From contig CAYNLY010000001.1 in assembly GCA_964398225.1 (NCBI GenBank), forward strand, positions 16,975 through 80,974: 64,000 bases of DNA. The letters are read 5' to 3'. Position 1 is the stretch's first letter. Every line of letters starts with the position of its first letter. The translations under genes and the position numbers were made by a program. The stretch is from an uncultured Zetaproteobacteria bacterium (GTDB lineage: Bacteria > Pseudomonadota > Zetaproteobacteria > Mariprofundales > Mariprofundaceae). Below are positions 18,577 through 64,000 of this stretch, one piece after another. Under the pieces are notes generated by a model. That model was not told the origin of the DNA, did not search any database, and saw only the letters and a list, made by a program, of their open reading frames with translations.

Positions 18577-19577
18577 GGTTCGATCGCATGGGCTGGATGC
18601 GGCTGAGCGCCGCGGTTGCCGGGATCCTGTTCCTGAGCCTTGCCGCCGCATGCTGGCACGAGCTCAGCGAACGCCGGGCGCCGCCGAGCGCGGTCGAAAT
18701 GATGATTCCGAAGGGGGCCTCGGTGCGGACGATCGCCCGGCTGCTGGCCGAGCGCGGGATAATCGCCTCACCGCTGCTGTTCCGCGTGGCGGCAAGGCTC
18801 CGGGGGGATGCCGCGCGCCTTCGTCATGGCTACTACCGTTTTGCGGAGCCGGCGAGCATGCTCGAGGTCCTCGACCGGCTGGTCCGCGGCGACGTGATGC
18901 GGTTTTCCGTGACCGTGCCCGAAGGGCTGCGCACCGAGGAAGTGCTGGCGCTTCTCGCCGAGCGGACCGGTGTTCCTCTTTCCCGCTGGCGCGCGGCGAT
19001 GCGGGAGCTGGCAGGCCAAGAGATCGAGGGCAGGCTTCTGCCCGAGACCTACGACTATACGCTGCCGCTTTCTCCGAAGGCGCTGCTTGAGCGGATGATG
19101 AAGGCGCAGCGGGCCGTGCTCGAATCCTTGAGTCCGGACCGGAGGCAATGGCGTCGCCTGGTTATCATCGCCTCGATCATCGAGAAGGAAACCGGCATCG
19201 ACCGGGAGCGCCCGCTGGTGTCGGCCGTGATCCACAACCGCCTGAAGAAGCGGATGCGCCTGCAGATGGACCCGACCGTGATCTACGGCATCCTCCGGAC
19301 CGAAGGCGGCTTTTCGGGCAATCTGCGCCGCCGCGATCTGCGCACCGACACGCCCTGGAACACCTATACGCGCTACGGGCTGCCGCCGACCCCGATCTGC
19401 AACCCGGGACGGGCGTCCCTTGAGGCCGCGGCGCATCCCGCCGACGTGGACTACCTCTATTTCGTGGCCGATGGCACCGGCGGGCATGTGTTTGCGTCCA
19501 CGCGCGCCGAGCACGAGCGCAACGTCCGCGCCTGGGTGAACATCGAGCGGCGGCGCAGCCGGGGAGGATCACCCTGA
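18567..19577 (+). CDS. mltG: endolytic murein transglycosylase MltG (YceG family)
   Basis: Start trimmed to ATG 18567. N-terminal TM segment, then IPKGASVRTIARLLAERGII ... ASIIEKETG ... PTVIYG ... YNTY...GLPPTPICNPG, which are the YceG signatures. Confidence 0.88.
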   Translation: MRLRFDRMGWMRLSAAVAGILFLSLAAACWHELSERRAPPSAVEMMIPKGASVRTIARLLAERGIIASPLLFRVAARLRGDAARLRHGYYRFAEPASMLEVLDRLVRGDVMRFSVTVPEGLRTEEVLALLAERTGVPLSRWRAAMRELAGQEIEGRLLPETYDYTLPLSPKALLERMMKAQRAVLESLSPDRRQWRRLVIIASIIEKETGIDRERPLVSAVIHNRLKKRMRLQMDPTVIYGILRTEGGFSGNLRRRDLRTDTPWNTYTRYGLPPTPICNPGRASLEAAAHPADVDYLYFVADGTGGHVFASTRAEHERNVRAWVNIERRRSRGGSP

Positions 19578-19834
19578 TGGGCCGCGAGGAGGAGGTCTGG
19601 GTGGTTCGCCTCGAGATGCCGCCCGAGACGATGGTGCGATTCCAGTTCCTGCTTCAGGGCGAGGACGGGCTGGCGATCGACCGGGGCGGCGGCAGGTCCG
19701 CGCACGAACTCTGGACCGTGGCCGACCGTCTCGACGAGCTTTACGCATTTCTCGAAGAGTTGCCGGAGCACTGGGGCATCCGCGTTCTGGGCGTGCGGCG
19801 CTGGGTTCCGGAGGTAGGAGGAAGGCCATCATGA
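19577..19834 (+). CDS. small hypothetical protein (85 aa) between mltG and tmk
   Basis: The ATG overlaps the mltG stop (TGATG). A GGAGGA site lies about 9 nt upstream. Its stop overlaps the tmk ATG (ATGA). I recognise no motif. Confidence 0.5.
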   Translation: MGREEEVWVVRLEMPPETMVRFQFLLQGEDGLAIDRGGGRSAHELWTVADRLDELYAFLEELPEHWGIRVLGVRRWVPEVGGRPS

Positions 19835-20481
19835 ACAGGCGCGGCCGGTTCATCACGCTTGAGGGCATCGACGGCTCGGGCAAGTCCACGCAGGCCGGGC
19901 GCCTCGCAAAGCGGCTGGAAGCGCGGGGGCTCAAGGTGGTGCGCACGCGCGAGCCCGGCGGCACGGCGCTGGGGCGGGAGATCCGACGGCTGCTGCTCGA
20001 TGGCAGGCATGCGCCCGTGGCCGAGGCCGAGCTGCTGCTGTTTCTGGCCGATCGCGCCCAGCATGTGCGCACGCTTGTGGCTCCGGCGCTGGCCGAAGGC
20101 GCCTGGGTGCTGTGCGACCGCTATTCCGATTCGACGCTGGCCTATCAGGCCGCCGCCCGCGGACTGGGCGCGATCGATGAGGTGCGCGAACTCATCGGCT
20201 TCGCCGAATGCGGCTGCCGGCCGGATCTGACGCTGTGGTTCGATCTGCCGGTCGAGCAGGCCCGGAGCCGGATGCGCGCCCGGACGGATGCCGGCACGGT
20301 GCCAAGCCGGCTCGATTCCGAAAGCCTCGCGTTTCATCGGCGGGTTGCGGAGGCGTTCGCCGATCTGGCCCGGGCCGAGCCCGACCGCATCGTGCGCATC
20401 GATGCGGAGGCGGATGAGGATGCGGTCGAACGCTGCGCCTGGGCGGCATTGACGCGCGCGTTTCCGGAGCTGTCCACATGA
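19831..20481 (+). CDS. tmk: dTMP kinase (thymidylate kinase)
   Basis: P-loop FITLEGIDGSGKSTQ, DRY motif, and the conserved position before holB. Confidence 0.93.
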   Translation: MNRRGRFITLEGIDGSGKSTQAGRLAKRLEARGLKVVRTREPGGTALGREIRRLLLDGRHAPVAEAELLLFLADRAQHVRTLVAPALAEGAWVLCDRYSDSTLAYQAAARGLGAIDEVRELIGFAECGCRPDLTLWFDLPVEQARSRMRARTDAGTVPSRLDSESLAFHRRVAEAFADLARAEPDRIVRIDAEADEDAVERCAWAALTRAFPELST

Positions 20482-21482: not shown

Positions 21483-23027
21483 ATGAGCAACACCTTCTAT
21501 GTGACGACGCCGATCTACTACGTCAACGACGAACCTCATCTCGGCCACATCTACACGACGGTCGCGGCCGATGCGCTGGCCCGATACCACCGCCTGGCCG
21601 GCAGGGACGTGTTCTTTCTGACCGGCGTGGACGAGCACGGCCAGAAGGTGCAGCAGGCGGCCGAGGCGAAGGGAATGGCGCCGATCGAGCTTGCCGACCG
21701 GGTGGTCGAACGCTACCGGACGCTGTGGCCGCGGCTGTCGATCAGCAACGACGACTTCATCCGCACCAGCTCCGAGCGTCACAAGAAGGCGGTGCAGGCG
21801 ATGTGGCGGCGGCTGGATGCGGCGGGCTGCATCTACAAGGGTGTCTACGAGGACTGGTACTGCGTGCCCTGCGAAACCTACTGGACCGAAACCCAGCTCA
21901 AGGAGGCCGGGCTGTGGGAGAACCGGCTTTGCCCTGACTGTCGGCGTCCGGTCGAGCGGGTGGAGGAGGAGTCCTACTTTTTCCGGCTGAGCCGCTTCCA
22001 GGAGCCGCTGCTTGAGCACATCCGCACGCATCCCGATTTCATCATGCCCGAAAGCCGCCGCAACGAGGTGGTGAGCTTCATCGAGCGTGGGCTGAACGAC
22101 CTGTCGATCTCCCGCACGACCTTCTCCTGGGGCGTGCCCGTGCCCGGAGACGAGGCGCATGTGGTCTACGTCTGGATCGACGCTCTGACGAACTATCTGT
22201 CCGCGCTCGGTTTTCCCGATCCGGAGGTGCCCAAATACTGGCCCGCGGACGTGCACCTGATCGGCAAGGACATCCTTCGCTTTCATGCGATCTACTGGCC
22301 GGCGATGCTGATGGCCGCTGGCCTCCCGCTGCCCAGGCGGGTGTTCGCGCACGGCTGGTGGACGGTCGAGGGCGAGAAGATGAGCAAGTCGCGCGGCAAC
22401 GCGCTTCGGCCCGACGATCTGCTTGCGCGCTACGAGGCCGACGTGCTGCGCTATTTCCTGCTCCGGGAAGTGCCGTTCGGGCAGGACGGCGATTTCTCGT
22501 TCCGGGCGCTGGCCGCGCGCTACAACACGGAGCTCGCCAACGACGTTGGCAACCTGCTCAACCGCTCGCTGTCGATGCTGCATCGCTACCGCGACGGCGT
22601 GCTGGGCGCGCCCGCCGAGGAGACCGAATCGGACCGGGCCCTGATCGCGGACGTCGAGGGAATGCTTGCCGATGTCGCCGAAGCCATGGAGGTGCAGGCG
22701 TTCCATCGCGCGCTGGAGCGGGTCAATGCGGTCGTCCGCCACGGCAACCGCTATGTCGAGGAAAACGCGCCCTGGGTGCTCGCCAAATCGGGCGAGGATG
22801 CCCGCCTGGATGCCGTGCTCTACCACCTGATCGAGACGCTGCGCCTGGTGGGCCTGATGCTTGCGCCGTTCATGCCGGAAAAGGCACGCGCGATGCTCGG
22901 GCAGATCCTGAACGGGGAGCCCGAGATGCGGGAGCTCAGGCTTGCCGAGCACGGCGGCTGGGGGCTGTTGAAGCCGGGGCACCGCTGCGCGCGGCCCACG
23001 CCCGTGTTTCCGAGGATGCAGGACTGA
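21483..23027 (+). CDS. metG: methionine--tRNA ligase (short form, no C-terminal EMAP/Trbp domain)
   Basis: HIGH-type motif (PHLGHIYT), zinc knuckle CVPCE...CPDC, and KMSKS. Confidence 0.95.
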   Translation: MSNTFYVTTPIYYVNDEPHLGHIYTTVAADALARYHRLAGRDVFFLTGVDEHGQKVQQAAEAKGMAPIELADRVVERYRTLWPRLSISNDDFIRTSSERHKKAVQAMWRRLDAAGCIYKGVYEDWYCVPCETYWTETQLKEAGLWENRLCPDCRRPVERVEEESYFFRLSRFQEPLLEHIRTHPDFIMPESRRNEVVSFIERGLNDLSISRTTFSWGVPVPGDEAHVVYVWIDALTNYLSALGFPDPEVPKYWPADVHLIGKDILRFHAIYWPAMLMAAGLPLPRRVFAHGWWTVEGEKMSKSRGNALRPDDLLARYEADVLRYFLLREVPFGQDGDFSFRALAARYNTELANDVGNLLNRSLSMLHRYRDGVLGAPAEETESDRALIADVEGMLADVAEAMEVQAFHRALERVNAVVRHGNRYVEENAPWVLAKSGEDARLDAVLYHLIETLRLVGLMLAPFMPEKARAMLGQILNGEPEMRELRLAEHGGWGLLKPGHRCARPTPVFPRMQD

Positions 23028-44277: not shown

Positions 44278-44315
44278 ACCCCTTCCAAGCAACTGGACGC
44301 CGGAAAGCGAGGAAC

Positions 44316-45998
44316 GTGATGGGCGCAAACGCAGTGCAGAACCTGGGCAAGATGCGGCTGGGCGACCGGCTGATCAAGCTCGGCCTGATCGACGAGGAAT
44401 GCCTGAAACTTGCGCTGCGCAAGCAGAAGAAGGACGGCATCCTGCTCGGCGAGGCGCTTGTCGAGCTGGGCTTCATCGACGAGGACGTCGTCACCAAGGT
44501 GCTGGCCTCGGACATCGACATCGACTTCGTCGATCTTCGCAATCTCGACGTGGATCCCGAGGCAATCGCCAAGGTTCCTCTGGCTATTGCGCGCAAATAT
44601 CACGTGCTTCCCTATGCGGTCGACGACTCCACCATATATGTGGCCATCGACGATCCCCTGAATCTCGTTCCGCTGGACATCATCTGGAAGCAGACGGGGC
44701 TCCGGGTTCAGCCGGCGGTGGCGCCGCTTGCCGACATCGAGGCCGCGATCGAACGCCATTATTCCTCGGTCGAAACCATCGACGACATCATCGACGAGAT
44801 CATCGAGGGCAAGATCGACGAGCAGCAGCTCGAGGCCCCGGTGGTCCGGCTGCTGGACAAGGTCATCGCGCACGCTGTCCGCCACCATGCCACGGACGTT
44901 CACATCGAGCCGGCGGAGAAAACGCTCGGCATCCGGATGCGCGTGGACGGCCTTTTGCAGGATGTCTGCCTGCTTCCCGTCAATGTATTGGCGCCCCTGA
45001 CATCCCGTGTCAAGATTTTGGCTAAACTGGATCTGTCCGAACGGCGTCTTCCCCAGGACGGCAGCTTCGCCACCCGGATTGGCCATCGCCAGGTCGAGGT
45101 GCGGGTGTCAACCTTGCCAACCATCTATGGCGAGAAGTCGGTGCTCCGGATCCTCGACCGGAGTTCGGTCGAGATGACGCTTGCCGGCATCGAGCTGCCG
45201 TATGCGATGCGGGAGCATCCGGAACAGCGGCTGCATCTGAACGATCCCTACGGGATGGTGCTCGTGACCGGTCCTACGGGCTCCGGCAAGACCACGACGC
45301 TGTATTCGATGCTCAACGCGGTGAAATCGGACGAAAAGGCGATCTTCACGATCGAGGATCCGGTCGAATACCGGATCAAGGGCCTGCAGCAGGTGTCGGT
45401 GCGCGAGGAGATCGGATTCACGTTTTCCAATGTGCTCCGCTCCATCCTCCGGCAGGATCCCGACATCATCATGGTGGGCGAAATCCGCGACACCGACACA
45501 GCCTCACTGGCCGTGCAGGCCGCGCTCACCGGCCATCTCGTGCTTTCGACGCTGCACACGAACAACGCGATCGAGACGGTCTTCCGCCTGATCGAAATGG
45601 GTGTTGAGCCCTACCTGATTCCGCCGTCCCTGCACGGCGTGCTCGCCCAGAGGCTGGTCCGGCGGCTGTGCCCGCACTGCCGCAAGCCGATGCCCGAGCC
45701 GTTCGTCCGCTCGGTGGTCGAGGCGCACGGGCTTGATCCCGATCGCGAATGGGTGTTCTGGCAGCCGGTCGGATGCCGGAACTGCGTGAACGGTTATGCC
45801 GGACGGATCGCGATTTTCGAATGGCTCGACCTGGACGAAAGGTTCCATGAGGTGATTCATCACCGGACGACGCTCGCCGAGCTCGAGCACGCCGCGCTCG
45901 AGGCGGGCTACCGGCCGATGGTCTTCGACGGCCTGGAAAAGGCCGCCGAGGGGCTGACGACCGTCAATGAGGTGCTGCGGGTGACCCGCCATGCCTGA
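44316..45998 (+). CDS. GspE/PilB/MshE-family assembly ATPase with N-terminal MshEN-type domain
   Basis: Walker A GPTGSGKTTT, Asp box, Walker B, and tetracysteine CPHC...CRNC. The N-terminus has RLGDRLIKLGLIDEECLKLALRKQ followed by LLGEALVELGFIDEDVVTKVLASD. The start is GTG 44316 or ATG 44319. Confidence 0.92.
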   Translation: MMGANAVQNLGKMRLGDRLIKLGLIDEECLKLALRKQKKDGILLGEALVELGFIDEDVVTKVLASDIDIDFVDLRNLDVDPEAIAKVPLAIARKYHVLPYAVDDSTIYVAIDDPLNLVPLDIIWKQTGLRVQPAVAPLADIEAAIERHYSSVETIDDIIDEIIEGKIDEQQLEAPVVRLLDKVIAHAVRHHATDVHIEPAEKTLGIRMRVDGLLQDVCLLPVNVLAPLTSRVKILAKLDLSERRLPQDGSFATRIGHRQVEVRVSTLPTIYGEKSVLRILDRSSVEMTLAGIELPYAMREHPEQRLHLNDPYGMVLVTGPTGSGKTTTLYSMLNAVKSDEKAIFTIEDPVEYRIKGLQQVSVREEIGFTFSNVLRSILRQDPDIIMVGEIRDTDTASLAVQAALTGHLVLSTLHTNNAIETVFRLIEMGVEPYLIPPSLHGVLAQRLVRRLCPHCRKPMPEPFVRSVVEAHGLDPDREWVFWQPVGCRNCVNGYAGRIAIFEWLDLDERFHEVIHHRTTLAELEHAALEAGYRPMVFDGLEKAAEGLTTVNEVLRVTRHA

Positions 45999-52374: not shown

Positions 52375-53032
52375 CTTCCAGGAAGGCCTGCGCGCGTTCG
52401 CGGTTGATCGTGTGGGTCCGGTCCTCGTTGGCGCGGACGACGCCGAGCGTGGCCAGCTGGCGCATGGCGCGAGTCACGGTTTCCCGCTGGCAGCTCAGCA
52501 TGTGGGCAAGTTCCGAATGGCTGGGCAGGCGCAGCGTCAGCGCGCGTTCCGCGTCCTTCCACTCGGGCAGGCTGAGCAGGTAGCGGCAGAGCTTGGCTGC
52601 GATCGTCGGCTGGCTCAGCCGGCAGACGACCTCGTGCGAGCGCAGGTAGCGGTCCAGAAACAGCGCCGTGATCCGGCGATGGAAACCGGGATCCCGCATG
52701 CGCTCATGGAAGCGTTCGGGCGCAATCCGGAGCAGGCGCGAAGGCGTGCGCGCGAGGATGCTGGCCGTTCGGGAAGGCCGGCCGAAGGCGCCGATTTCAC
52801 CGACCAGATCGCCCGGCCCGAGCTCGTAGAGCAGGGTTTCGTGGCCGCCGGGCGTGACCAGGCGGACGTCGAGTTTTCCTTCCAGCACGAGGTAGCAGGT
52901 GCCCGCGTGTTCCTCGCCCTCAAAAAGAACGAAGCGCCCCTTCGGCACCTCGATCTCGGGGCAGCCGGGAAAATCCTCGGCGGAGAACTTCGGCTCCGGC
53001 AGGGAGGAACGGGAGGAGGTCGCATTGGCCAT
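52364..53032 (-). CDS. Crp/Fnr family transcriptional regulator (cNMP-binding domain + HTH)
   Basis: Beta-roll cNMP domain (FEGEEHAGTCYLVLEGKL...GPGDLVGEIGAFG...RTASILA) and C-terminal HTH (SHSELAHMLSCQRETVTRAMRQL). The Fnr-type N-terminal Cys cluster is absent. Confidence 0.85.
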   Translation of the reverse strand: MANATSSRSSLPEPKFSAEDFPGCPEIEVPKGRFVLFEGEEHAGTCYLVLEGKLDVRLVTPGGHETLLYELGPGDLVGEIGAFGRPSRTASILARTPSRLLRIAPERFHERMRDPGFHRRITALFLDRYLRSHEVVCRLSQPTIAAKLCRYLLSLPEWKDAERALTLRLPSHSELAHMLSCQRETVTRAMRQLATLGVVRANEDRTHTINRERAQAFLEEAG

Positions 53033-53993: not shown

Positions 53994-54627
53994 CGGCGAC
54001 CCCCGCCTGATTTGCCAGTTGCGCCAGCTTGGCGGTCATGCGCCTCCGGCGCAGAAGGAAGTCCCACTGCCGGCCGCCAGCCTGATGCCAATGGTGTGCC
54101 GCCCGGATCCCGCTCAGCAGCAAGGCGCGGATCATCGCCTGGATTTCGCTTCGGGCCAGATGCTCGCGCCGGCCGCGAACGACGATACGCGGCGTGGTCC
54201 GGCTCAGGCTTTCGCCGTACAGCTGCGCGATCGCGGCAACCACGCTCGGATGCGCGGCCTCCCCGAAATATTCGCGCTGGCGTTCGATCCGGTTCATGCC
54301 CTCCGCCAGTTGCCCGCGCAGCGCCGCATCCCGCCGGATTTTCCGGGAAAGGCTCATCATCCCGCCGATACAGCCCATGATCCGCCGGAAGGAGGGCTGC
54401 TCCCGCCCTTCGAGCAGTGCGCGTGCGAGGTCCAGACCCCGGGCGAGATTGCGCGCATCGGGCAACGGATCACGGGAAAACAGGCTTTCCAGCAGTGGCG
54501 CGACATCGGCCGGATCCGCCCCGCCCGTGCGCGCAAGGCCGTCCACGCAGGAGGCGGCCTGGACCATCGCGGCCAGCGCAAGCATGCGCCGCTCGAAGCG
54601 GGTTGGAGATTTTGCTGTCTCGGACAT
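53983..54627 (-). CDS. hflD: high-frequency-of-lysogenization protein HflD homolog
   Basis: Start trimmed to ATG 54627. Collinear with E. coli HflD, including the LLSGIRAAHHWHQAGG block (E. coli has LLAGIRAAVLWHQVGG). Confidence 0.75.
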   Translation of the reverse strand: MSETAKSPTRFERRMLALAAMVQAASCVDGLARTGGADPADVAPLLESLFSRDPLPDARNLARGLDLARALLEGREQPSFRRIMGCIGGMMSLSRKIRRDAALRGQLAEGMNRIERQREYFGEAAHPSVVAAIAQLYGESLSRTTPRIVVRGRREHLARSEIQAMIRALLLSGIRAAHHWHQAGGRQWDFLLRRRRMTAKLAQLANQAGVAVGG

Positions 54628-54682
54628 GGCGGCATGCTGGTTTTCGGGGCAGCATCGCACAAGCCGAACCGTGGGGAGAGCG

Positions 54683-55501
54683 ATGAACGATCGTGAACAG
54701 GGCCGGGAGCTTCGCCGTCGGGCGCTCGAGGCGCTCCGAACTCCGGATCCCGACGCGAAACTGAGCCGGGTGCGCGAGCTTGCCCGCGGGCGGGGTGCAC
54801 TTACCGTCGATCCGAAACTGCGGCTTTCGATGGACGGCGTGCCCGGCCGTCCCGAACGCCCCGAACTCGTGCCTCCGCAGTCCGTGCCGCGCCGGGGCTT
54901 CGGCACGCGTGAGGGCAGGGCCGCGACGATGCATGCGATCGCGCACATCGAGTTCAACGCGATCAATCTGGCGCTGGATGCCGTGTGCCGGTTTGCCGGG
55001 ATGCCGGAGGAGTATTACCGGGACTGGGCGCGGGTGGCGGCCGAGGAGGCCTACCATTTCGAGCTCGTGCGCGCGCATCTGCGCCATCTGGGCTTCGACT
55101 ACGGCGATTTCGCCGCCCACAACGGGCTGTGGGAGATGGCCGAGAAGACGGCCGGCGATGTGCTCGAGCGCATGGCGCTGGTGCCGCGGGTGCTCGAGGC
55201 GCGGGGGCTGGACGTGACGCCCCGCATCCAGGCGAAGCTTCGCGCGGCAGGCGATGCGCACGCGGCGCGGATTCTCGACATCATTCATCAGGACGAGGTG
55301 GGGCATGTGGCCCTGGGCGGGCGATGGTTCGCGTGGTTGTGCCGGAGGCGGGGGCTGGATGTCGCGGAAACCTTCCGGAGGCTTCTCGCCCGTCACTTCC
55401 CGAACGGTCTGAGCGGGCCGTTCGGTCTCGATATTCGCCGTCGGGCCGGATTTTCCGAAGCGGAGCTCAGGGTGCTGACCGCGATGGACGCCCCGGATTG
55501 A
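54683..55501 (+). CDS. ferritin-like DUF455 family protein
   Basis: Start trimmed to ATG 54683. Di-iron-like motifs HIEFNAINLALD, EEAYHFELV and HQDEVGHVALG. Confidence 0.7.
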   Translation: MNDREQGRELRRRALEALRTPDPDAKLSRVRELARGRGALTVDPKLRLSMDGVPGRPERPELVPPQSVPRRGFGTREGRAATMHAIAHIEFNAINLALDAVCRFAGMPEEYYRDWARVAAEEAYHFELVRAHLRHLGFDYGDFAAHNGLWEMAEKTAGDVLERMALVPRVLEARGLDVTPRIQAKLRAAGDAHAARILDIIHQDEVGHVALGGRWFAWLCRRRGLDVAETFRRLLARHFPNGLSGPFGLDIRRRAGFSEAELRVLTAMDAPD

Positions 55502-56144
55502 GGATGTCGAGGATCTCGTCGAGTCCGCCGGAGCGGATGCAGACGTCGGCTTCGGCTTCCACCTTCGGTTTGGCGTGGAAGGCGATGCCAAGGCCTGCCG
55601 CCCGGATCATCGGCAGATCGTTGGCTCCGTCGCCCACGGCGACGGTCTGTTCGATGGGAATGCCGAACGCGGCCGCCTGCTCGAGCAGCGTGCGCCGCTT
55701 GACCTCGCCATCCACGATGTCGCCCAGGACCGCGCCGGTCAGGCGCCCGTCCCGGATTTCCAGCTCGTTCGCGCACGCATAGTCCAGACCGAGCCTTGCC
55801 TTCAGGCGCTCGGTGAAGCGTGTGAAGCCGCCGGAAACGAGCCCCACCTTCCAGCCGTGGCGCTTGAGTTCGCCGATCAGTCGCTCCGCGCCGTCGGTGA
55901 GCCGCACACGGTCCCGGTACACCTCATCGAGCACCGAGGCCTCAAGGCCGGCCAGCAGTTGCACGCGCGCGATCAGCGATTCGGCGAAGTCGATTTCGCC
56001 ACGCATCGCGCGCTCGGTGATCGCGGCCACTTCCTTCCTGATGCCGAGGAAGTCGGCGATTTCGTCGATGCATTCGCACCGGATCAGCGTGGAGTCCATG
56101 TCCATCTGCAGCAGGCCGGGGCGGCTCAGGGTGGGGCGGTTCAC
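55467..56144 (-). CDS. serB: phosphoserine phosphatase SerB (HAD domain only)
   Basis: HAD motif I DMDSTLI, motif II VSGGF and motif IV GDGANDL. The GTG start at 56144 overlaps the mfd stop (GTGA). The ORF-track extension to 57002 lies inside mfd and was rejected. Confidence 0.82.
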   Translation of the reverse strand: MNRPTLSRPGLLQMDMDSTLIRCECIDEIADFLGIRKEVAAITERAMRGEIDFAESLIARVQLLAGLEASVLDEVYRDRVRLTDGAERLIGELKRHGWKVGLVSGGFTRFTERLKARLGLDYACANELEIRDGRLTGAVLGDIVDGEVKRRTLLEQAAAFGIPIEQTVAVGDGANDLPMIRAAGLGIAFHAKPKVEAEADVCIRSGGLDEILDILNPGRPSRSAP

Positions 56145-59100
56145 GAGGGCATCTCCTGGGTGTCGGCGGCGTGGGCCGCATCCTCGATAAGCTCGTCGAG
56201 GAAGGCAACGGCCGCGGCAAGCCATGCCCGAGGCTCCTCGTCCGGAAACAGCAGGGTTAGGTTGCCGTCGGGCGTCAGGCGGAAGCGATGGGGCTCGGCC
56301 TGAACGCGGGCGATCATCCGCGCCGGATCCACCGGCGAGTCGGGGGTGAAATCGAGCTTCAGGCCCTGGGCGGTGCGGCGGATCGCGGAAATCGCGAGGC
56401 GCTGCGCGCGCCAGCGCAGCCGTGCGCCTTCGAGGGCCAGACGCGCCTCGTCCGGCATTCGCCCGAACCGGTCGGTCATTTCCTCGAACAGGGCCGTGAT
56501 CCCGGCATCGGAATGCACGCGCGCAAGCCTCCGGTACATCGCCAGGCGTTCGCCCTGCTGCGGGATGTAGTCGGGCGGCAGGATCATCGGAAGCCCCAGA
56601 TGCATTTCGACCGGCTGCAAACGCGGCCGGGCCTCGCCGCGGGCCTCGGCGATCGCCTCGGCGAGCATTTCCATGTACAGATCCAGGCCGATGTCCTCGA
56701 TGCGTCCGCTCTGTTCCGCGCCCAGCAGGTTGCCCGCGCCGCGAATCTCCATGTCCTGCCGGGCCAGCAGAAAGCCCGCCCCCAGTTCCGTATGCTCGGC
56801 GATCGCCTGGAGCCGTTCGCGCGCATCCGGCGTCATCGCGCGGGGATCGGGCGTGAACAGATAGGCATAGGCCTGGCGGTGGCTTCGGCCGACGCGACCC
56901 CGAATCTGATGCAGCTGCGCAAGCCCGAGAAGGTCGGCGCGCTCGACGATCAGGGTGTTCGCGTTCGGCACGTCCAGCCCCGATTCGATGATCGTCGTGC
57001 ACACCAGCACGTTCAGCCGCCCCTCGTAGAAGGCCAGCATCTGGCGGTCCAGCATCGCCGAGGACATCTGGCCGTGGGCGACACCCACCCGCGCCTCGGG
57101 CACCTGTTCGCGGATGCGGCGGGCGATGCGCTCGATGCTGCCGACGTGGTTGTGCAGGTAATAGACCTGGCCGCCGCGGTAGAGCTCGCGGCGGATCGCC
57201 TCGTTGGCCAGGCCCGGATCGAACGGCGCGATCATCGTCCGGATCGCTTCGCGTTCAGCGGGCGGGGTGGCGATGACCGAAACCGAGCGCAGCCCCGAAA
57301 GCGTCTGATTGAGCGTGCGCGGGATCGGTGTCGCGGTGAGCGTCAGCAGGTCGCAGGACGCGTGCAGCGCCTTCAGCTTCTGCTTGTGGCGGACACCGAA
57401 ACGCTGCTCCTCGTCCACGATGACGAGCCCCAGGTTCGAAAACCGGAAGCGGTCGGACAAAAGCCGATGCGTGCCGATCACGATGTCGATGCGTCCGCGC
57501 CCGAGGCGGTCGGCGATGCGTTCGATTTCCGCCTTGCCCTGCAGGCGCGAGACGAGCGCAATCTCAAGCCCCGTGCCGGCGAAACGGTCGCTGAAGCTCG
57601 CAAAATGCTGGTTTGCGAGCACCGTTGTCGGCGCAAGCAGCGCGACCTGGCGGCCGGATGCGGCCACCAGGAAGGCGGCCCGCATCGCCACCTCGGTCTT
57701 GCCGAAACCCACGTCGCCGCAGATCACGCGGTCCATCGGCCGGTCGCTTTCGGTCAGGTCGCGCACCACCTGATCGATGGCCTCGGCCTGGTCGTCGGTC
57801 TCCTCGAACGGGAAGCGCGCGACGAACTCCTCGTAGGCGTCGAACAGCGCGCCCTCAAGCCTCAGGGGTTCGCGCCGCGCCCGCATCCTGCGCGCCTCGG
57901 TCTCGATCAGTTCGTGGGCCATGGCCAGAAGATCGCGCCGGACGCGCTCGCGCGTGCGCCGCCAGGCCTCGGAGCCCAGACGGTTCAGTTTCGGTTCGTC
58001 CGCCCCGGTGTAGCGGTGCAGCCGCGCCAGATCCTCGACCGGCACGTAGACCGAGGCCTGATCGGCGTATTCGATCCGGATGAAGTCGGCGCGCTCCTCG
58101 CCGTCGCCGATTGTTTCGATGCCGGTGAAGCGCCCGATGCCGTGGTCCTCGTGAACGACCGGATCGCCGGGTCTGAGTTCGGTGAGACTTGCGAACACGT
58201 CGGCGGCAAGCCTGCGGCTGCCACCGCGCCGGCGCGGAAGCTTCTGGCCCAGCAGTTCGCGGCCGGTCAGAAACAGACGCCGGGATTCCGGGTCGGCGAA
58301 CCCGCGCGAAAGCCACCCCAAAACCGCCACCAGGGGGGCGCTGCCGTCGTCCTCGTCGAGACGATCGAGCGCGCGCACGGCGCCAAGCGAACTTGCGGCT
58401 TCGATCAGCCGCTCCCGCTGGCCCGGACCGTGGCCGACGAGAACGATCCGCCATCCCGCCTGCAGCCGCTCGTTCAGCGCCGCAATCAGCGCGTGCAGCG
58501 GGCGCGGGTGTTCCTGGAAATCGTCGAGGCCTGGGGCGGACTCAAGGCGGGAAGGGGGAAGCGAGCGCGCCTCGATTTTTGTTTCGGTCGCGTACAGCTC
58601 CTGCGGAGCGATCACGGGCTCGCCGCTTGCGCGTACGAGCTCGAACTGATCGCGCACTTGCGCCGCAAAGCGCAGCCGGGCTTCCTCGATGTCCGCCGGC
58701 GCCAGAATCCGCGCGTTTGCGGGGAGATAGTCGCCCAGGCGCGCGGTGCGCGGGTAGGCGAGCGGAAGCAGGGATTCGATGCCGGGATGCGGCCGGCCTT
58801 CCTGCGCCGAGACGAGAAGCGGATGCTTTCGGTGCTGAGGAAAGCGGGCGCGGAACGCGGCCACGAAGCGCCTGATGCCCGCCTCGTCCAGGATCACCTC
58901 GCGCGCGGGCACCGATTCGAAGCGATCGAGGTGCTCGGTCGAACGCTGGGTTTCCGGATCGAAATGCCGGATCGAGTCGATCTCGTCGCCGAACATCTCG
59001 ATCCGGATCGGCCGCTCCTCGTTGGCCGGCCAGACATCGAGCAGGCCTCCGCGGATCGAGAACTCGCCCGGCGCCAGCACGCGCTCGGTTGCCATCATGC

Positions 59101-59521
59101 CGCTTTCGGCAAGCCGGCGGCGGATTTCGGCCAGATCCAGGCGGGCGCCTGTTGCAAGGCGCCAGACGTGCGCGCGCACCGATTCCGGCGGCGGAATCCG
59201 CTGAAGCCAGGCGGGCAGCGGGGTGAGGACAAGCCCCTGGGGTTCGGGTTCGTTCAACAGCCGGGCGAGTGTGGCGAACCGTTCGCCGACGATCGCCTGA
59301 TGCGGGCTTACCCGGTCGTAGGGAAGCATCTCCCAGGCGGGGAAGCGCCAGAGCCGCTCCCTTTGGCCCTGGAGGAAGAAGGCCAGCTCCTCGGACAGCT
59401 GCCGGTAGGCGGCCAGATCCGGGCAGATCCACACATGCAGACCCGGCTGGAGCGCAAGCCGCGCCAGCCGCCAGGCCAGTCCGATCGGTTCGGAGCTAAG
59501 ATCAGGCATCGGGCGCGGCAT
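56141..59521 (-). CDS. mfd: transcription-repair coupling factor
   Basis: Start trimmed to ATG 59521. The protein has a UvrB-homology N-terminus and a CarD/RID block (GDPVVHEDHGIGRF). Its superfamily 2 helicase motifs are GDVGFGKTEVA, DEEQRFG and QLHQIRGRVGRS, followed by a TRG motif. Confidence 0.95.
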   Translation of the reverse strand: MPRPMPDLSSEPIGLAWRLARLALQPGLHVWICPDLAAYRQLSEELAFFLQGQRERLWRFPAWEMLPYDRVSPHQAIVGERFATLARLLNEPEPQGLVLTPLPAWLQRIPPPESVRAHVWRLATGARLDLAEIRRRLAESGMMATERVLAPGEFSIRGGLLDVWPANEERPIRIEMFGDEIDSIRHFDPETQRSTEHLDRFESVPAREVILDEAGIRRFVAAFRARFPQHRKHPLLVSAQEGRPHPGIESLLPLAYPRTARLGDYLPANARILAPADIEEARLRFAAQVRDQFELVRASGEPVIAPQELYATETKIEARSLPPSRLESAPGLDDFQEHPRPLHALIAALNERLQAGWRIVLVGHGPGQRERLIEAASSLGAVRALDRLDEDDGSAPLVAVLGWLSRGFADPESRRLFLTGRELLGQKLPRRRGGSRRLAADVFASLTELRPGDPVVHEDHGIGRFTGIETIGDGEERADFIRIEYADQASVYVPVEDLARLHRYTGADEPKLNRLGSEAWRRTRERVRRDLLAMAHELIETEARRMRARREPLRLEGALFDAYEEFVARFPFEETDDQAEAIDQVVRDLTESDRPMDRVICGDVGFGKTEVAMRAAFLVAASGRQVALLAPTTVLANQHFASFSDRFAGTGLEIALVSRLQGKAEIERIADRLGRGRIDIVIGTHRLLSDRFRFSNLGLVIVDEEQRFGVRHKQKLKALHASCDLLTLTATPIPRTLNQTLSGLRSVSVIATPPAEREAIRTMIAPFDPGLANEAIRRELYRGGQVYYLHNHVGSIERIARRIREQVPEARVGVAHGQMSSAMLDRQMLAFYEGRLNVLVCTTIIESGLDVPNANTLIVERADLLGLAQLHQIRGRVGRSHRQAYAYLFTPDPRAMTPDARERLQAIAEHTELGAGFLLARQDMEIRGAGNLLGAEQSGRIEDIGLDLYMEMLAEAIAEARGEARPRLQPVEMHLGLPMILPPDYIPQQGERLAMYRRLARVHSDAGITALFEEMTDRFGRMPDEARLALEGARLRWRAQRLAISAIRRTAQGLKLDFTPDSPVDPARMIARVQAEPHRFRLTPDGNLTLLFPDEEPRAWLAAAVAFLDELIEDAAHAADTQEMPS

Positions 59522-59559: not shown

Positions 59560-62500
59560 TCAGTTTTCGCCCAAAAAGCCCTTGAGGTCGGTCTGGTCGA
59601 ACTTGAAGCGGAAGCGCAGGTACGGGCCCTGGCGGGTGTATTCGCTGGCCGCGAAGTCCTTGTCGTAGAAGCCGGCGAAGTTGTAGCCAAGGCTCAGCCA
59701 GAGGTTGTCCACCAGCCGGTGGCCGACGGCCAGGCCGTAGGCCGGCGCGAACTGCCCGCCGTGCCAGGTGTGGAAGAGGCCCCCCTGGGCGGAGATGTCC
59801 CAGCTTTCGTTCAGGTCGTAGGTGGCCTGAAGGCCGAGCACGTCGGTGAAGGCGTTGAATCCGCCTTGGGTGAACTGTTCGCGCGCCCACTTCGCGCCGT
59901 AGTGGAAGCCGAGCTGGAAGCTCGCGGTGGGCTGCCAGTTGCCGGCCAGGTTGTTGATGTAGCGCCAGCTGGAGATGCTCGTGGCGGGATCAAGGCGACG
60001 GTCGTACAGCGCTTCAAAACGGTCGAGCAGCATCCAGCCGTCGTAATCCGGGCGCCAGGCAAGCGCCAGCGAGCCGCCGGCGGTCGTCGTCCGGGTTCCG
60101 CCCGTGCCGCGGGTGTCGCTCCACATCATGCTGAACTGCGTGCGCAGCCACTCGGCGGGATCGCCCTGGATGCCGGCCGAGAGGTTCAGCTTGCGGTCGA
60201 TGGCCGCGGTGCGGTACTCGACGCGCGTGTTCCAGACCCAGTCGCCCGGGCGGTAGGTGAGCCCGGCCGAATAGGCCGTGAAGTCGTTGTCCGTGCCGAG
60301 GCCGCTTGTGCCCGATGCGAGCGGGACGTTCAGGTTGAGCGGCGTCGCGCCCGGATGGCGGAGCGTCTTCGTCCGGTCGAAGCCTAAGTCGATCGAAAGC
60401 CGCTCGGTCGCCTGCCAGGTCTGCTGGAGCCCCACGTTCGCAAAGCTTCGGGGTCCGCTTTCGCCGAGCTGCTGCTCGTAGCTCGTCGAAAGCTGCGCGC
60501 CGTTCCAGGGCCGCGTCTTCACGCCCAGCCGGGTCGTGGCGCTGTTCTGCAGGTCGCCGACGGTCCATTCGTGCGTCGCCGACAGCGTCGTTGCGTCGGT
60601 CAGGCGGTAGTCGGCGCCGATGCTGGTCCGGGTCGGGAAGTCCACGCTGTTCGTGCCCTTGCCCAGGTTCTGTTCGCGGTTGACCTGCAGCGAGAGCCGG
60701 TCGGTCACCTGCACGCCGGCGCCCGCCGTCAGCTGATTCGAGCGCGTCCGGTTGCCGGCGCCGTCCCGGTCGCGGACCGAACGGGCGCCGAGCTGCGCGT
60801 TGAAGCGCCCGTTCTGCCAGCGGGTCTGCGCCTGCGCCATGTCCCGGCGCGCGCCGGTGCCGAGATTCTCCTGCCGGAAGCCTTCGCCCGTGACGCTGAG
60901 ATGCTCGGTCGCGCGGAGCTCGGCCTGCGCACCGATCTTGCGGGTCGCATCCTCGCTGCCCAGCGTCTGGCCGAGGCCGAAGCCACCGTCGAGCTGGCGG
61001 GCGTAGGCCTGGGCGCGAACGCGTTGGCCCGTGTGCGTCACCTCCGCCTTCCAGGCTTTCCTGCGGGCGTTCGCCGCCGTGTCGCTCTGGGCGAGCTCGG
61101 CCTTGAGTTCGGTGCCCGCGCCCACACGCAGCGTGGCGTCCACGCCGGCCAGCCGGTTGTCCTTGCCCAGCTGGCCTTCCTGAACGAAGCTCGCGCCGAG
61201 CTCGAGCGAATCGGTCGGCTTGAAGCTTGCGCGTCCGCCGAAGTTCGTCAGCTGATCCTTCCGGTCGTCGGCCTCGTACTCGACGCGGATGTAGATCGGG
61301 TTGAGGTTCGCGTCGTGCGCCTGCACCGGCTGCTTGAAGAACAGCGTGCCCGCGATGTAGTCGATGTCGTAGTCCACGTGCCGCGTAAGCTGCCGGGACT
61401 CCAGAATCACCTCGCTGCGGAAGCGGTCGCGCGTTTCGACGAACACGGTTTCGGAGTTCGCGAGCACGTTCTTGCGCGACAGATGATACAGCCCGCTCGT
61501 GCCGTCGCCGCGGATCTCGTCCTTGACCTTGGTCTGGCTCGTGCGGCTGGCGAACGCCGTGTAGCCGAAGCGCTTGCCGCGATATTCGGACTTCAGGCCG
61601 TTCAGCGTGCGCGAGTAGCGCGAAAGCTCGGTCACCGTAAGCCCTGTGTCGAAGTCGCCGAACATCGCGTAGAAGGTGTCGCGCTCGATCTTCAGATAGA
61701 GCTTCGCGCGGCTTGAGGCGTCGTAGCGCTGCTCGGTCGCATCGCCGTAAATCGTGTAGTACCGGTTCGGATCGATCGTCTGCCGGATGCTGTTGCCGAC
61801 CACGCCCTTCGTCTTGGCCGTGTCGTAGGCGAGCGTGAGCAGGAAGTCGCCCTTCACCCGGCCCTTCGCGTAGAACGCGAGCCGGCCGTCGCGGTAGTAG
61901 CCGTCCTTCTCGGACTGCTTCGTGATCGGCTGGATGGCGCCCTTGAGGCGGTTGTAGCCCAGCGTGCCCTCGCCGAAGCCGACCAGGATCCAGTCGCGGG
62001 TTTCCGGCCGGATCCAGGCCTTGACCTCGCGCACGCCGTCTTCGAGCCGGAAGCGGAGCGTGACCTCGCCGGCCTGCATCGTGGGCTTGAGCCGGATTTC
62101 GGCGATGCCGCCGGGGCCGACGCGGTACTGCGGCTTGTAGTCGGCCGAGCGCATCGGATCGTTGGGAACACCGGCCGGGAAGTAGGGCGGCGCCACCTCG
62201 AAGTCGCCGATCATGCCCTCGCGGGCGGGGTTACCCGCGCGGTCCAGCATCCGCACGGCAATGACCGGCTCGCTGCGCCCGTCGGCGACGGCGCGGGTGT
62301 GTTCACGGTCCCATTCGACAATCGCCGGGCCGCCGGCGTAGACGACCGTGCGCTCGATCCGGGCGAGCTCCTTGCCGTTGTTGTCTTCAATCGTGGCCAC
62401 GAAGCGGTTCTCGCCGTCCTTCAGGTGCACGTTGCGCCAGTGGCTGATGGCAATCGTTCCGGCCGGATTGCGCGTTGCGCCCTCGAAGAACAGGGAGCTC

Positions 62501-64000
62501 ACCGCTTCGCCGTTGAGCCGCAGCCGCACCTTCTGGCCCGGCTTATGCCGGATCAGAACGTGCGTGGCCGGGATCGACGGCAGATCGGTTTCGGCCGGAT
62601 AGAGCCACGCCGGCTCGGCCGAGGTCTGGCGCGCAAGCCAGGCCTTCACGTCCGAGGGCTTGGGCGCTGCTACGGAAGCCTTCTTCGGAAGCGGGGCGCG
62701 CTCGTTCCAGTCGCCATGCGCCTTGGCCTCGCCCTCCGCGTGGGCGGAGCGAATTTCGGTGTCGAGGATCCGCCGCACCTGGGCGGCGTAGACGTTGACT
62801 TCGGTTCGGCGGTTCAGGGCACGGCCCGCGGCGGTCCGGTTCGAGGCGATCGGCCGGCGAGCGCCCATGCCCTTGACCGTCATCTGCTCGGGCGCAAGCC
62901 CCAGCGCCTGCCGCAGGTAGTCGGCCACCGAGCGCGCGCGCGCCTCGGACAGCACCTGATTGTTCGCGAAAATCTTGCGATGATCGGGGCGGATCCGGCG
63001 GTTGTCGGTGTGGCCGATCACCTCGATCCGGGTGATTTCGAGCTTCTTCAACTCGTTCACCAGAGCTTCGAGCTTGCCCATCATCTCGGGTTTCAGATCC
63101 GCGCTCAGCGTGTCGAAGTTCAGGTGCAGATCCACGGTTCGGGCCAGCCGCTCTTCGGCAAGTTCGTCGTGAATCGTATTCACCGCAAGTCCCGTGCGCC
63201 CGTTCGGCGTGCCCGGAGAGGCGAATCGGGCGTAGGCCACCGCCTTCTTGTCGCCGGGTTCGCCGTCGCCGGCAAGCGCCAGCCGGATCACATGCTCGGG
63301 CCTGGCCGGATCGAGTTTCCAGACGAGCCCGGTGATCGTCTGCTCGGGCTCGGCAGGATTGCCGTCCACGGTCGCGGTTCCCTTCACATAGTGCCAGCCG
63401 GCCGGGGGCAGATAGACGCCTTCGAGGCGATCGAGCCGCACCTTGTCTTCGTGCCGGATCGTCACCGTTGCCCAGACGCGCGCGCCGTCGGTGGAAAGCG
63501 CGTGATCCACGCTCAGCCGCGCAGCCGGCGGCTCGCGCCGGATCAGCCGGAAGTTCGCGCGCCAGATGCCTCCGCCACGCACCTCGACGAACTGCGAGAA
63601 CGCCCGGCCGGCAAAGCGCGTGTTCGGAAGCGGGGCGAGTTCGTACTGCCGGTGCAGCGAGTCGAGATCAATCTGCACCACATGCGTGCCGGGCGTAACC
63701 CCCTCGAAGTGGTAGAAGCCGTTTTCATCGGTCACCGTGAACGTCCCGTCCTCGAGGAACACCTTGACGCCGGCCACGCCTTCCTCGCCGGGATCGTTCC
63801 AGGCGTTGCCGTCCGTGGCCGGATGCTTGCCGTCCGCGCGCCAGCCGCCGTCGACGAACACGCGACCGACGATGAAGCCCTTGGTTCGAATCAGATCGTC
63901 GACGATCTCAAGGCTCGCGGTTGCGCGGTTCGAGCCGACCGGAAGTCCCGCGCGCTGCCCCGTAGCCGTCGCCGTATTCACGGCCGTCCCGATCCGCGCG
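59560..64000 (-). CDS. giant multidomain outer-membrane-associated protein, N-terminus outside window (Cna-B/SdrD-like + OmpA-like + Ig-like + about 810-aa beta-rich C-terminal region)
   Basis: The reading frame stays open to the window edge, and the GTG at 63981 is probably internal. The recognisable modules are:
- Cna-B/carboxypeptidase-regulatory-like module GVKVFLEDGTFTVTDENGFYHFEGVTPGTHVV (about nt 63667-63879).
- OmpA_C-like module IEVIGHTDNRRI...NQVLSEARARSVADYL...NRRTEVNV (about nt 62782-63129).
- Big_1-like segment AVADGRSEPVIAVRMLDRAGNP.
- Long C-terminal region of alternating-hydrophobic beta-strand character, ending YLRFRFKFDQTDLKGFLGEN. Confidence 0.7.
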   Translation of the reverse strand, partial: ARIGTAVNTATATGQRAGLPVGSNRATASLEIVDDLIRTKGFIVGRVFVDGGWRADGKHPATDGNAWNDPGEEGVAGVKVFLEDGTFTVTDENGFYHFEGVTPGTHVVQIDLDSLHRQYELAPLPNTRFAGRAFSQFVEVRGGGIWRANFRLIRREPPAARLSVDHALSTDGARVWATVTIRHEDKVRLDRLEGVYLPPAGWHYVKGTATVDGNPAEPEQTITGLVWKLDPARPEHVIRLALAGDGEPGDKKAVAYARFASPGTPNGRTGLAVNTIHDELAEERLARTVDLHLNFDTLSADLKPEMMGKLEALVNELKKLEITRIEVIGHTDNRRIRPDHRKIFANNQVLSEARARSVADYLRQALGLAPEQMTVKGMGARRPIASNRTAAGRALNRRTEVNVYAAQVRRILDTEIRSAHAEGEAKAHGDWNERAPLPKKASVAAPKPSDVKAWLARQTSAEPAWLYPAETDLPSIPATHVLIRHKPGQKVRLRLNGEAVSSLFFEGATRNPAGTIAISHWRNVHLKDGENRFVATIEDNNGKELARIERTVVYAGGPAIVEWDREHTRAVADGRSEPVIAVRMLDRAGNPAREGMIGDFEVAPPYFPAGVPNDPMRSADYKPQYRVGPGGIAEIRLKPTMQAGEVTLRFRLEDGVREVKAWIRPETRDWILVGFGEGTLGYNRLKGAIQPITKQSEKDGYYRDGRLAFYAKGRVKGDFLLTLAYDTAKTKGVVGNSIRQTIDPNRYYTIYGDATEQRYDASSRAKLYLKIERDTFYAMFGDFDTGLTVTELSRYSRTLNGLKSEYRGKRFGYTAFASRTSQTKVKDEIRGDGTSGLYHLSRKNVLANSETVFVETRDRFRSEVILESRQLTRHVDYDIDYIAGTLFFKQPVQAHDANLNPIYIRVEYEADDRKDQLTNFGGRASFKPTDSLELGASFVQEGQLGKDNRLAGVDATLRVGAGTELKAELAQSDTAANARRKAWKAEVTHTGQRVRAQAYARQLDGGFGLGQTLGSEDATRKIGAQAELRATEHLSVTGEGFRQENLGTGARRDMAQAQTRWQNGRFNAQLGARSVRDRDGAGNRTRSNQLTAGAGVQVTDRLSLQVNREQNLGKGTNSVDFPTRTSIGADYRLTDATTLSATHEWTVGDLQNSATTRLGVKTRPWNGAQLSTSYEQQLGESGPRSFANVGLQQTWQATERLSIDLGFDRTKTLRHPGATPLNLNVPLASGTSGLGTDNDFTAYSAGLTYRPGDWVWNTRVEYRTAAIDRKLNLSAGIQGDPAEWLRTQFSMMWSDTRGTGGTRTTTAGGSLALAWRPDYDGWMLLDRFEALYDRRLDPATSISSWRYINNLAGNWQPTASFQLGFHYGAKWAREQFTQGGFNAFTDVLGLQATYDLNESWDISAQGGLFHTWHGGQFAPAYGLAVGHRLVDNLWLSLGYNFAGFYDKDFAASEYTRQGPYLRFRFKFDQTDLKGFLGEN

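Follow-up and report, generated by a model that had tools for sequence, protein, structure and literature searches.

A giant outer-membrane protein of a large uncharacterised family, linked to a cassette of DUF11 proteins and possibly to a surface fibre, in an uncultured zetaproteobacterium

The 64,000-nucleotide stretch of DNA analysed here, referred to below as the window (positions 16,975 to 80,974 of contig CAYNLY010000001.1, assembly GCA_964398225.1, from an uncultured Zetaproteobacteria bacterium of the family Mariprofundaceae), carries at its end the 3' part of a giant gene, the product of which belongs, with very little room for doubt as to both anatomy and family, to a large uncharacterised protein family. 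The protein combines adhesin-type domains, an OmpA-type domain predicted to bind peptidoglycan and a very large predicted outer-membrane beta-barrel, and its relatives are encoded next to a cassette of secreted DUF11 proteins, which end in an incomplete domain and some of which begin with a hairpin resembling the missing part. From this arrangement we propose, with a probability of about 0.5, a head-to-tail, possibly self-ligating fibre, of which the last unit, the outer-membrane pore and the wall anchor would be one and the same protein.

The giant open reading frame (ORF) lies on the minus strand, from a TGA stop codon at 59560-59562 up to 63999, and 1,479 codons plus the stop are readable (59560..63999). 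Since no in-frame stop occurs up to 63999, the true start lies outside the window, as had been concluded in the initial annotation, and since relatives of the protein were recovered at E = 0, the ORF is a real gene and not a chance reading frame. Full-length relatives measure about 1,950-2,100 amino acids (aa). The closest of them (P0001, 2,078 aa, 70% identical to the giant) is encoded at locus L001, a contig of GCA_054041735.1, and the offsets between the OmpA domains place the first window residue at aa 597 of P0001. What the window holds is, almost certainly, the C-terminal ~70% of an outer-membrane protein that is exported by the Sec route and measures ~2,050-2,100 residues.

A phmmer search with aa 460-1479 against 1.84 billion representative sequences returned 3,635 clusters (defined at 50% identity) at E ≤ 1e-3, 1,559 of them at E ≤ 1e-30. 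The matched region was C-terminal in every case, in proteins of about 1.8-3.0 thousand aa, and a scan of one genome per species gave at least 592 species genomes with a confirmed relative. Hosts among the matches listed include Zetaproteobacteria, Desulfobacterota, Geobacter, Nitrospirota, Steroidobacteraceae (with the cultured Povalibacter uvarum), Krumholzibacteriota, Lentisphaeria, Methylophilaceae and others; the nearest among the species-genome matches listed is from the Zetaproteobacteria (68%). In their source records, the relatives are labelled only as 'OmpA family protein' or 'TIGR01451 repeat protein'. As for the C-terminal ~1,000 residues, no relative covering them was found in Pfam, NCBIfam or the PDB sequences, and a 42-sequence profile compared with all PDB chains matched only OmpA-type domains, with nothing for this region. 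A full-text literature search gave no paper on the giant family or on its cassette. The early impression of an unusual architecture was thus borne out, as it corresponds to no characterised family in Pfam, NCBIfam, the PDB sequences or the papers searched. An Acinetobacter adhesin said to carry an 'OmpA-like anchoring domain' (PMC12617251), compared by description only, has the adhesive domain at its N-terminus and the anchor in a terminal position. On the whole, the giant is outside ushers, autotransporters, inverse autotransporters, SprA/SlpA and LptD/MtrB, and only its OmpA, SdrD_B and DUF11-type domains belong to known families.

The first 33 residues in the window are the end of an upstream DUF11 domain, i.e. 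the last two strands (beta8-beta9, GTAVNTATATG...SNRATASLEIV; 63901..63999, minus strand, like all the domains below) of a complete DUF11/CLIPPER domain, the main part of which is beyond the window; the Pfam DUF11 match of P0001 (aa 500-612) projects onto window aa 1-16. At this place, the family has the consensus G.AvNTA.A...SNtA.AtV, and the complete internal DUF11 domain of the giants, of which only these last two strands are in the window, has its Lys, Asp and Asn conserved at 100, 100 and 93%, respectively. Next comes an SdrD_B/CnaB-type (carboxypeptidase-regulatory-like) beta-sandwich (63526..63882), matched marginally by PF17210 at aa 62-112 (E 3.6e-7, 30.8 bits vs. a cut-off of 29.7) and more strongly in the homologue P0001 (47.7 bits), while PF13620 at aa 69-115 stays under its cut-off; the Cna-B/SdrD-B-like module first read from the letters is thereby just upheld. 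A DUF11/CLIPPER-like beta-sandwich (aa 159-280; 63160..63525) then abuts the OmpA domain. Pfam, PF01345 included, gave zero matches to it even at E ≤ 10, but hhalign aligned it with the Pfam-recognised internal DUF11 domain of the family (Prob 98.4%, E 4.9e-15), in line with the DUF11-like segment seen initially. This second domain is without an isopeptide-type Asn in its beta8.

The OmpA_C-like peptidoglycan-binding domain (aa 281-403; 62791..63159) carries the motifs GHTD...LSEARA...NRRTE and sits close to where it had been placed at first (about 62782-63129). It is supported by PF00691 on aa 295-397 (63.8 bits vs. a cut-off of 27.2, E 1.9e-17), by the OmpA-type models of NCBIfam, which widen it to aa 281-403 and are the only NCBIfam models matching the giant, by profile matches to the PDB (E 2e-20) and by Foldseek matches to 3td3, 5u1h and 7rjj with target-normalised template-modelling (TM) scores of 0.76-0.84 (0.84 to 3td3). 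Both GHTD, at aa 329-332, and LSEARA can be read in the sequence; their conserved Asp and Arg are what we take, from the Acinetobacter baumannii OmpA complex, to be the diaminopimelate-binding site, and the domain probably binds peptidoglycan.

For the C-terminal ~1,200 residues, an AlphaFold2 model was built on a 42-sequence alignment (mean predicted local distance difference test, pLDDT, 77.5; predicted TM-score 0.60; window aa = model residue + 279). In this model, the Ala/Pro/Lys-rich linker recognised at the outset appears as disordered at aa 409-443 (62671..62775; model residues 130-164, pLDDT < 50). It is followed by two beta-sandwiches, at aa 464-563 (62311..62610; model residues 185-284, pLDDT 80-91) and aa 579-677 (61969..62265; model residues 300-398, pLDDT 82-91). 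Where a single Ig-like, Big_1-like segment had been proposed, the beta-sandwich fold therefore stands, as two domains, but the Big_1 name does not, with zero profile matches. When isolated sub-segments were searched with Pfam at E ≤ 10, no match was obtained for the two beta-sandwiches, for the conserved module or for the barrel described below.

The ~810 residues of beta strands that had been assigned to the C-terminal part are indeed beta-rich but composite, consisting of a module at aa 706-889 and a barrel proper of ~565 residues. The module (61333..61884; AlphaFold2 strands, model residues 427-609) is beta-rich and the most conserved part of the family, with the motifs RDWILVG..., GDGTSGLY..., ETRDRFRSE... 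and GTLFFK, and many invariant alignment columns fall within it. It may serve as a plug or gate, or else supply the initial strands of the wall together with an inserted plug. After it, at aa 901-1465 (59605..61299; DSSP of the AlphaFold2 model), some 32 long strands run antiparallel one after another and are predicted to form a very large outer-membrane beta-barrel. Most of these strands have pLDDT values of 80-93, with turns of 2-6 residues on both sides and alternating hydrophobicity; their number, counted from the DSSP strings, would rise from ~32 to ~38 if the hairpins at model residues 427-551 are wall strands. In a comparison with the usher plug, which is inserted after strand 6, the same strings place a small conserved beta module after about seven candidate strands. 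The last strand, GPYLRFRF, is completed by K1466 and F1467 to the aromatic-ended YLRFRFKF, so that the supposed lack of a terminal aromatic residue did not hold. After it comes a conserved C-terminal extension, KFDQTDLKGFLGEN (59563..59604), with a short helix at model residues 1190-1199, in agreement with the protein end (...KFDQTDLKGFLGEN) given in the initial annotation. This extension counts 14 residues from the DSSP strand limit (aa 1466-1479) or 12 from the final Phe, and the K, D and Q of its KFDQ are invariant (alignment columns K1187, D1189 and Q1190).

Compared with the PDB by Foldseek, the barrel model gave SlpA (8agd/8ae1, E 3e-9) as best and SprA (8gl8/6h3i, E 1e-8) as second match; further matches were LptD, MtrB and TonB-dependent receptors (BtuB), at E 1e-6 to 1e-5, and FimD, all with probability 1.0. 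Since the TM-scores are low (0.1-0.27 overall, 0.11-0.23 for SlpA/SprA, 0.25 target-normalised for FimD), this likeness is one of fold class and not of homology. With its long antiparallel hairpins and these barrel matches, the modelled C-terminal region is a membrane barrel and not a soluble beta-solenoid, and its ~32 strands vs. the 12 of an autotransporter agree with the large size originally perceived.

The genes upstream of the giant were classified by profile into types A (~330 aa), B (~165 aa) and C (~370-430 aa), the giant being almost always the last gene of the cassette. Loci were informative when the giant was full-length and preceded by 3.3 kb or more of sequence; in 35 of these 36, a B gene and one to three A/C-type genes stand directly upstream of the giant, on the same strand, the commonest order being A-B-C-giant. 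L001 has four further secreted DUF11 proteins upstream of its giant, and a similar gene set was found in Geomonas, in a Moraxellaceae metagenome-assembled genome (MAG) and in a MAG labelled Pedobacter, which makes four distant loci; a fifth locus, L006, has A- and B-type genes, the C-type gene being absent. The other neighbours around the cassette vary between loci. The cassette is often flanked by large, multi-repeat DUF11 adhesin-like proteins of 600-2,050 aa, here termed type L. All the cassette proteins have Sec signal peptides and no other kind, and the only NCBIfam model that they match is the generic TIGR01451 DUF11 repeat.

Several variants of this organisation were also recorded. In loci L019, L022, L028, L029 and L034, from Zetaproteobacteria/Ghiorsea, the order is B-S-S-giant, with two B genes in L019, which suggests that the subunit genes differ in order and number from lineage to lineage. 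The place of type L genes varies, some preceding A and others directly following the giant (L003, at 16168-20268; L026, L059, L065, L071, L074, L077 and L078). In the L protein of the Moraxellaceae locus, a SpaA_4 domain, of Gram-positive pilin type, replaces the DUF11 repeats, whereas the C-terminal end is the same (...HIRLRPKG...FRMRVK).

A, B, C and L proteins all end directly after a strand of the type TitF.VtIn. Aligned with the complete internal DUF11 domain of the giants (Prob 97.9%, E 4.7e-13), the C-terminal domain of A and C breaks off at column 103 of the 139 template columns, without reaching strands 8-9, and the Asn columns of these two strands are gapped in 110-111 of the 111 A/C proteins, in all 56 B and in all 17 L. 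The Asp at the catalytic position is kept in 109 of the 111 A/C proteins and replaced by Asn in 41 of the 56 B, while the Lys of strand 1 hardly varies in A (K229) and is kept by all 17 L proteins. At their other end, A, C and the giants start right after the AxA signal-peptidase site with a hairpin, GT.aGT.I.N.A.v.Y...SN..., whose pattern is that of strands 8-9 of the complete domain (the consensus G.AvNTA.A...SNtA.AtV given above). In its strict form, this motif is found in 86 of 111 A/C proteins and 36 of 45 giants, vs. none of the 56 B and 17 L, and the domains that come after it differ between A/C and the giant.

In the solved CLIPPER domain (residues 708-828; PMC12617251), the three residues concerned are K715, D748 and N806; across 103 A-type proteins, N37, K229 and D274 are invariant or nearly so, and, going by relative position, the N-terminal hairpin would carry the isopeptide Asn. 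When the hairpin is appended to the truncated domain of A, the Pfam DUF11 alignment is extended from profile position 80 to 113 of 114; when it is appended to B, from 56 to 98, the score rising by 7.7 bits. Single hairpins fall on the right profile columns in 82% of cases vs. 13% of shuffles. The resemblance of the hairpin to strands 8-9 is thus argued from motif, position, profile extension and complementarity, and not from score. The best argument for complementation between chains comes from the L proteins, since they keep Lys (17/17 proteins) and Asp but have no Asn-bearing strand anywhere in cis.

An AlphaFold model of subunit A (pLDDT 94.1) has a seven-stranded C-terminal domain and a hairpin with pLDDT 90-97. 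Its Foldseek matches are generic tandem beta-sandwiches (integrin legs, AgI/II C-terminal domains, Cnm and CfaE-CfaB), all with low TM-scores, and fit docking in cis as well as in trans.

On this basis, A and C would be units with both donor and acceptor, L and B acceptor-only units and the giant a donor-only unit; the L acceptor would keep its Lys and Asp, the B acceptor being without them. Such a set of donor-only, acceptor-only and double units has the logic of a polar head-to-tail fibre. The N-terminal hairpin of each unit would enter the open C-terminal domain of the preceding one, where it might be locked by a spontaneous Lys-Asn isopeptide bond, giving the order tip (L or B), then (A/C)n, then giant. 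As for B, with Asn instead of the catalytic Asp and no donor hairpin, it could act as a non-covalent cap, as an initiator or as a hairpin chaperone. The giant would supply the pore by which folded units exit the periplasm and would then end the fibre, its stalk passing through its own pore and its OmpA domain being fastened to the cell wall; this double role of translocon and terminal unit is proposed because the giant is the sole outer-membrane protein of the cassette and its predicted barrel would be wide enough for folded beta-sandwiches.

In this scheme, the OmpA domain, the linker, the two beta-sandwiches and both barrel ends would be periplasmic, and only the distal stalk needs to be outside. 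The initial annotation had seen a topology puzzle in an OmpA module placed N-terminal to a barrel. There is no paradox, since a barrel with an even number of strands has its two ends on the periplasmic side, and precedents exist in SlpA/OmpM (an S-layer homology, SLH, domain and then a barrel) and in intimin (LysM and then a barrel). What was left of the puzzle, namely where the N-terminal adhesin-type domains of the giant sit, would find its answer in the cassette model. Taken to its full extent, i.e. as a sortase-independent fibre pathway of diderms in which naturally split CLIPPER subunits are joined by Lys-Asn ligation and a giant acts as ~32-strand pore, last covalent unit and peptidoglycan anchor, the proposal is put forward tentatively, with odds clearly below even.

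Among known systems, the one that such a fibre would resemble most in its working is the chaperone-usher pilus (FimD/PapC). In both cases, small Sec-exported beta-sandwich subunits are clustered with one large outer-membrane barrel; the cassette subunits have an incomplete C-terminal fold together with an N-terminal extension able to complete a neighbour; and an acceptor-only tip, a donor-bearing terminator and a candidate plug beside or inside the barrel can be recognised, FimD being among the Foldseek matches. However, neither the usher profile PF00577 nor a PapD-like chaperone profile matched the giant or the cassette proteins, and no such gene is present in the cassette. The giant also has ~32 strands vs. 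the 24 of the usher; the putative donor consists of two strands, as a hairpin from a CnaA/CLIPPER-type fold, instead of one Ig-pilin strand; conservation extends to the residues that a covalent Lys-Asn lock would need; and the giant itself combines a donor hairpin with a long stalk and with an OmpA domain as anchor to peptidoglycan. The system differs in its folds, in having a hairpin as donor, in a lock that is probably covalent and in the fusion of pore and anchor, and there is a substantial chance that it represents a new class.

The putative link itself has parallels elsewhere. In the archaeal thread filament (PMC9715654) and in Clostridium perfringens BsaA (PMC11580942), a strand completes the next subunit and an isopeptide bond makes the link covalent, as proposed here, and SpyTag/SpyCatcher is a man-made split isopeptide domain (PMC6539128). 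None of these systems, which come from archaea, from Gram-positive bacteria or from protein engineering, has to cross an outer membrane, in contrast to what would be a natural split of a CLIPPER (CnaA-like) domain in diderms, served by a dedicated giant. As to the pore, SprA of the type IX secretion system (T9SS) is likewise a very large single-chain barrel, whose 36 strands pass folded proteins over the outer membrane. It shares no sequence similarity with the giant, however, its complex partners PorV, PPI, SkpA and SprE are not among the cassette genes, and, to our knowledge, many of the phyla carrying the giant family have no T9SS.

A number of points weigh against the fibre. Its mechanism is something that we infer at every step. 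The similarity between hairpin and strands 8-9 is not statistically significant by itself: hhalign gave no match, single hairpins score ~2 bits, and the hairpin profile reaches 8.4 bits on real domains vs. 10.8 bits for the reversed-sequence control. The hairpin may also dock in cis on the C-terminal domain of its own subunit, which would give a closed, self-complemented two-domain protein with no need for a polymer. The presence of Asp in the L proteins was partly pre-selected by the filter used, and the N-terminal hairpin of the present giant, beyond the window, is extrapolated from its 70%-identical syntenic relative. The strand number and the role of the plug come from DSSP strings, next to low Foldseek TM-scores (0.17-0.27). 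A surface rather than periplasmic site is, for the stalk as for A and C, a proposal. OmcB of Chlamydia, a DUF11 protein, is at least partly periplasmic, and the DUF11-like domain of the giant joins the OmpA domain without a linker, so that at least this domain is periplasmic.

These last observations lead to the best-surviving alternative, which we regard as improbable although worth keeping in mind: an envelope tether or scaffold, in which the stalk and A/B/C would remain in the periplasm as a lattice or spacer, in the manner of SlpA/OmpM or chlamydial OmcB, with a plugged or porin-like barrel and no translocon. It agrees with the presence of Sec signal peptides only on the cassette proteins, with the periplasmic DUF11-like domain and with the order OmpA, linker, beta-sandwiches and barrel, which parallels that of the SLH-then-barrel tethers, the best Foldseek matches. 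Indeed, in Deinococcus SlpA and Negativicutes OmpM, too, a peptidoglycan-binding domain is followed by a spacer and then by a very large single-chain barrel. The giant nevertheless has OmpA_C instead of SLH and beta-sandwiches instead of a coiled-coil spacer, shows no sequence similarity to these proteins, has ~880 extra N-terminal residues of adhesin-type domains and is obligately linked to the DUF11 cassette. For a simple anchor, moreover, the extra, highly conserved module and a ~32-strand barrel with short turns on both faces would be superfluous. The tether also fits poorly with the flanking L proteins, large, multi-repeat and adhesin-like (600-2,050 aa), and with the complementarity of donor-only and acceptor-only units, which suits a polar fibre better than a lattice. 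Finally, CLIPPER domains have been described as extracellular stalk domains (PMC12617251).

Somewhat less probable still is a self-exporting giant adhesin, comparable to an oversized autotransporter, which would pass its own stalk through its own barrel and keep the OmpA domain at the base; A, B and C would be independent accessories and the hairpin merely a homologous first element. Autotransporters and inverse autotransporters (types Va and Ve) likewise join a repeat passenger and a barrel in one chain, and intimin adds a periplasmic peptidoglycan-binding domain. The giant has its passenger-like repeats N-terminal and its barrel C-terminal, and the conservation of Lys, Asp and Asn at 93-100% in its internal DUF11 domain is what would be expected of a load-bearing stalk. 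But the barrels of both types have 12 strands vs. ~32, the domain order differs, and the peptidoglycan-binding domain of the giant lies between the repeats and the barrel. No autotransporter barrel profile matched: for type Va, PF03797 gave no match in the giant, in which OmpA and two further domains separate the repeats from the barrel, and for type Ve, none of the LysM, intimin barrel and Big_1 profiles did, the barrel of the giant being C-terminal. Self-export would also leave unexplained why A, B, C and L stop exactly after DUF11 strand 7 with Lys and Asp kept, why the domains behind the hairpin are unrelated between A/C and the giant, and why the genes are linked almost obligately (35/36 loci).

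A conduit for solutes, lipids or electrons, of the LptD, MtrB/PioB or TonB-dependent-receptor type and with the other domains as accessories, is very unlikely: the Foldseek matches to LptD, MtrB and TonB-dependent receptors, a multihaem cytochrome gene near the giant in one locus (L005) and the iron or sulfur cycling of several host lineages speak for it, but those matches have low TM-scores, zero Pfam/NCBIfam matches to the LptD, MtrB/PioB or TonB-dependent-receptor families and no TonB box or plug profile were found, the conserved neighbours are DUF11 proteins, cytochrome, Lpt and TonB genes are not conserved nearby, and the MtrB/PioB-type electron conduit was rejected for want of conserved cytochrome partners.

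Concerning the rest of the window, the giant gene ends 38 nt from the start of mfd (56147-59521, minus strand, starting at 59521), the distance given initially. Further downstream of the giant are genes for a HAD hydrolase (55491-56144, minus strand), a DUF455 protein (54842-55483, plus strand), a DUF489 protein (54094-54642, minus strand) and a Crp-family regulator (52379-53032, minus strand); a type II secretion/type IV pilus-type ATPase (GspE/MshE-like; 44301-45995, plus strand, 48% aa identity) lies farther off. On this downstream side, window and L001 share one gene order (giant-mfd-HAD-DUF455-DUF489-Crp), the first five neighbours having 39-76% aa identity. In other phyla, none of these neighbours, the ATPase included, is kept around the giant gene, and a functional tie between the giant and mfd was rejected, as other loci have different neighbours. 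A few genes beyond mfd, L001 also encodes a small DUF4398 + OmpA protein of 223 aa (21685-22356); a tblastn search for its counterpart in the window gave only the OmpA domain of the giant. A link with the stalk-formation (sfz) cluster of Zetaproteobacteria was considered and rejected, the sfz genes coding for BcsB-like, GT2, GH10 and CotH proteins. Long ORFs run antisense to the giant gene, among them one of 381 aa at 60571-61716 (plus strand); they arise from the 68% G+C content and are no evidence for overlapping genes. Over the whole window (1-64000), zero tRNA/tmRNA genes and zero Rfam families at the gathering threshold were found.

Even when restricted to the family itself, i.e. ~3,600 clusters, at least 592 species genomes and ~1,000 residues outside the profile libraries, these results point to a gap in outer-membrane biology, in host lineages that include iron, sulfur and nitrogen cyclers from sediments, groundwater and vents. 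Should the fibre be real, it would add a new class to the few ways in which diderm bacteria build surface fibres: a covalent fibre built beyond the inner membrane without sortase or ATP, by a pore-forming protein that also anchors it to the cell wall. It would be a natural counterpart to the split isopeptide tags of protein engineering, and its giant a further very large single-chain barrel passing folded proteins. Povalibacter uvarum DSM 26723 and Geomonas limicola, both available in culture, are hosts in which the fibre hypothesis can be tested directly.

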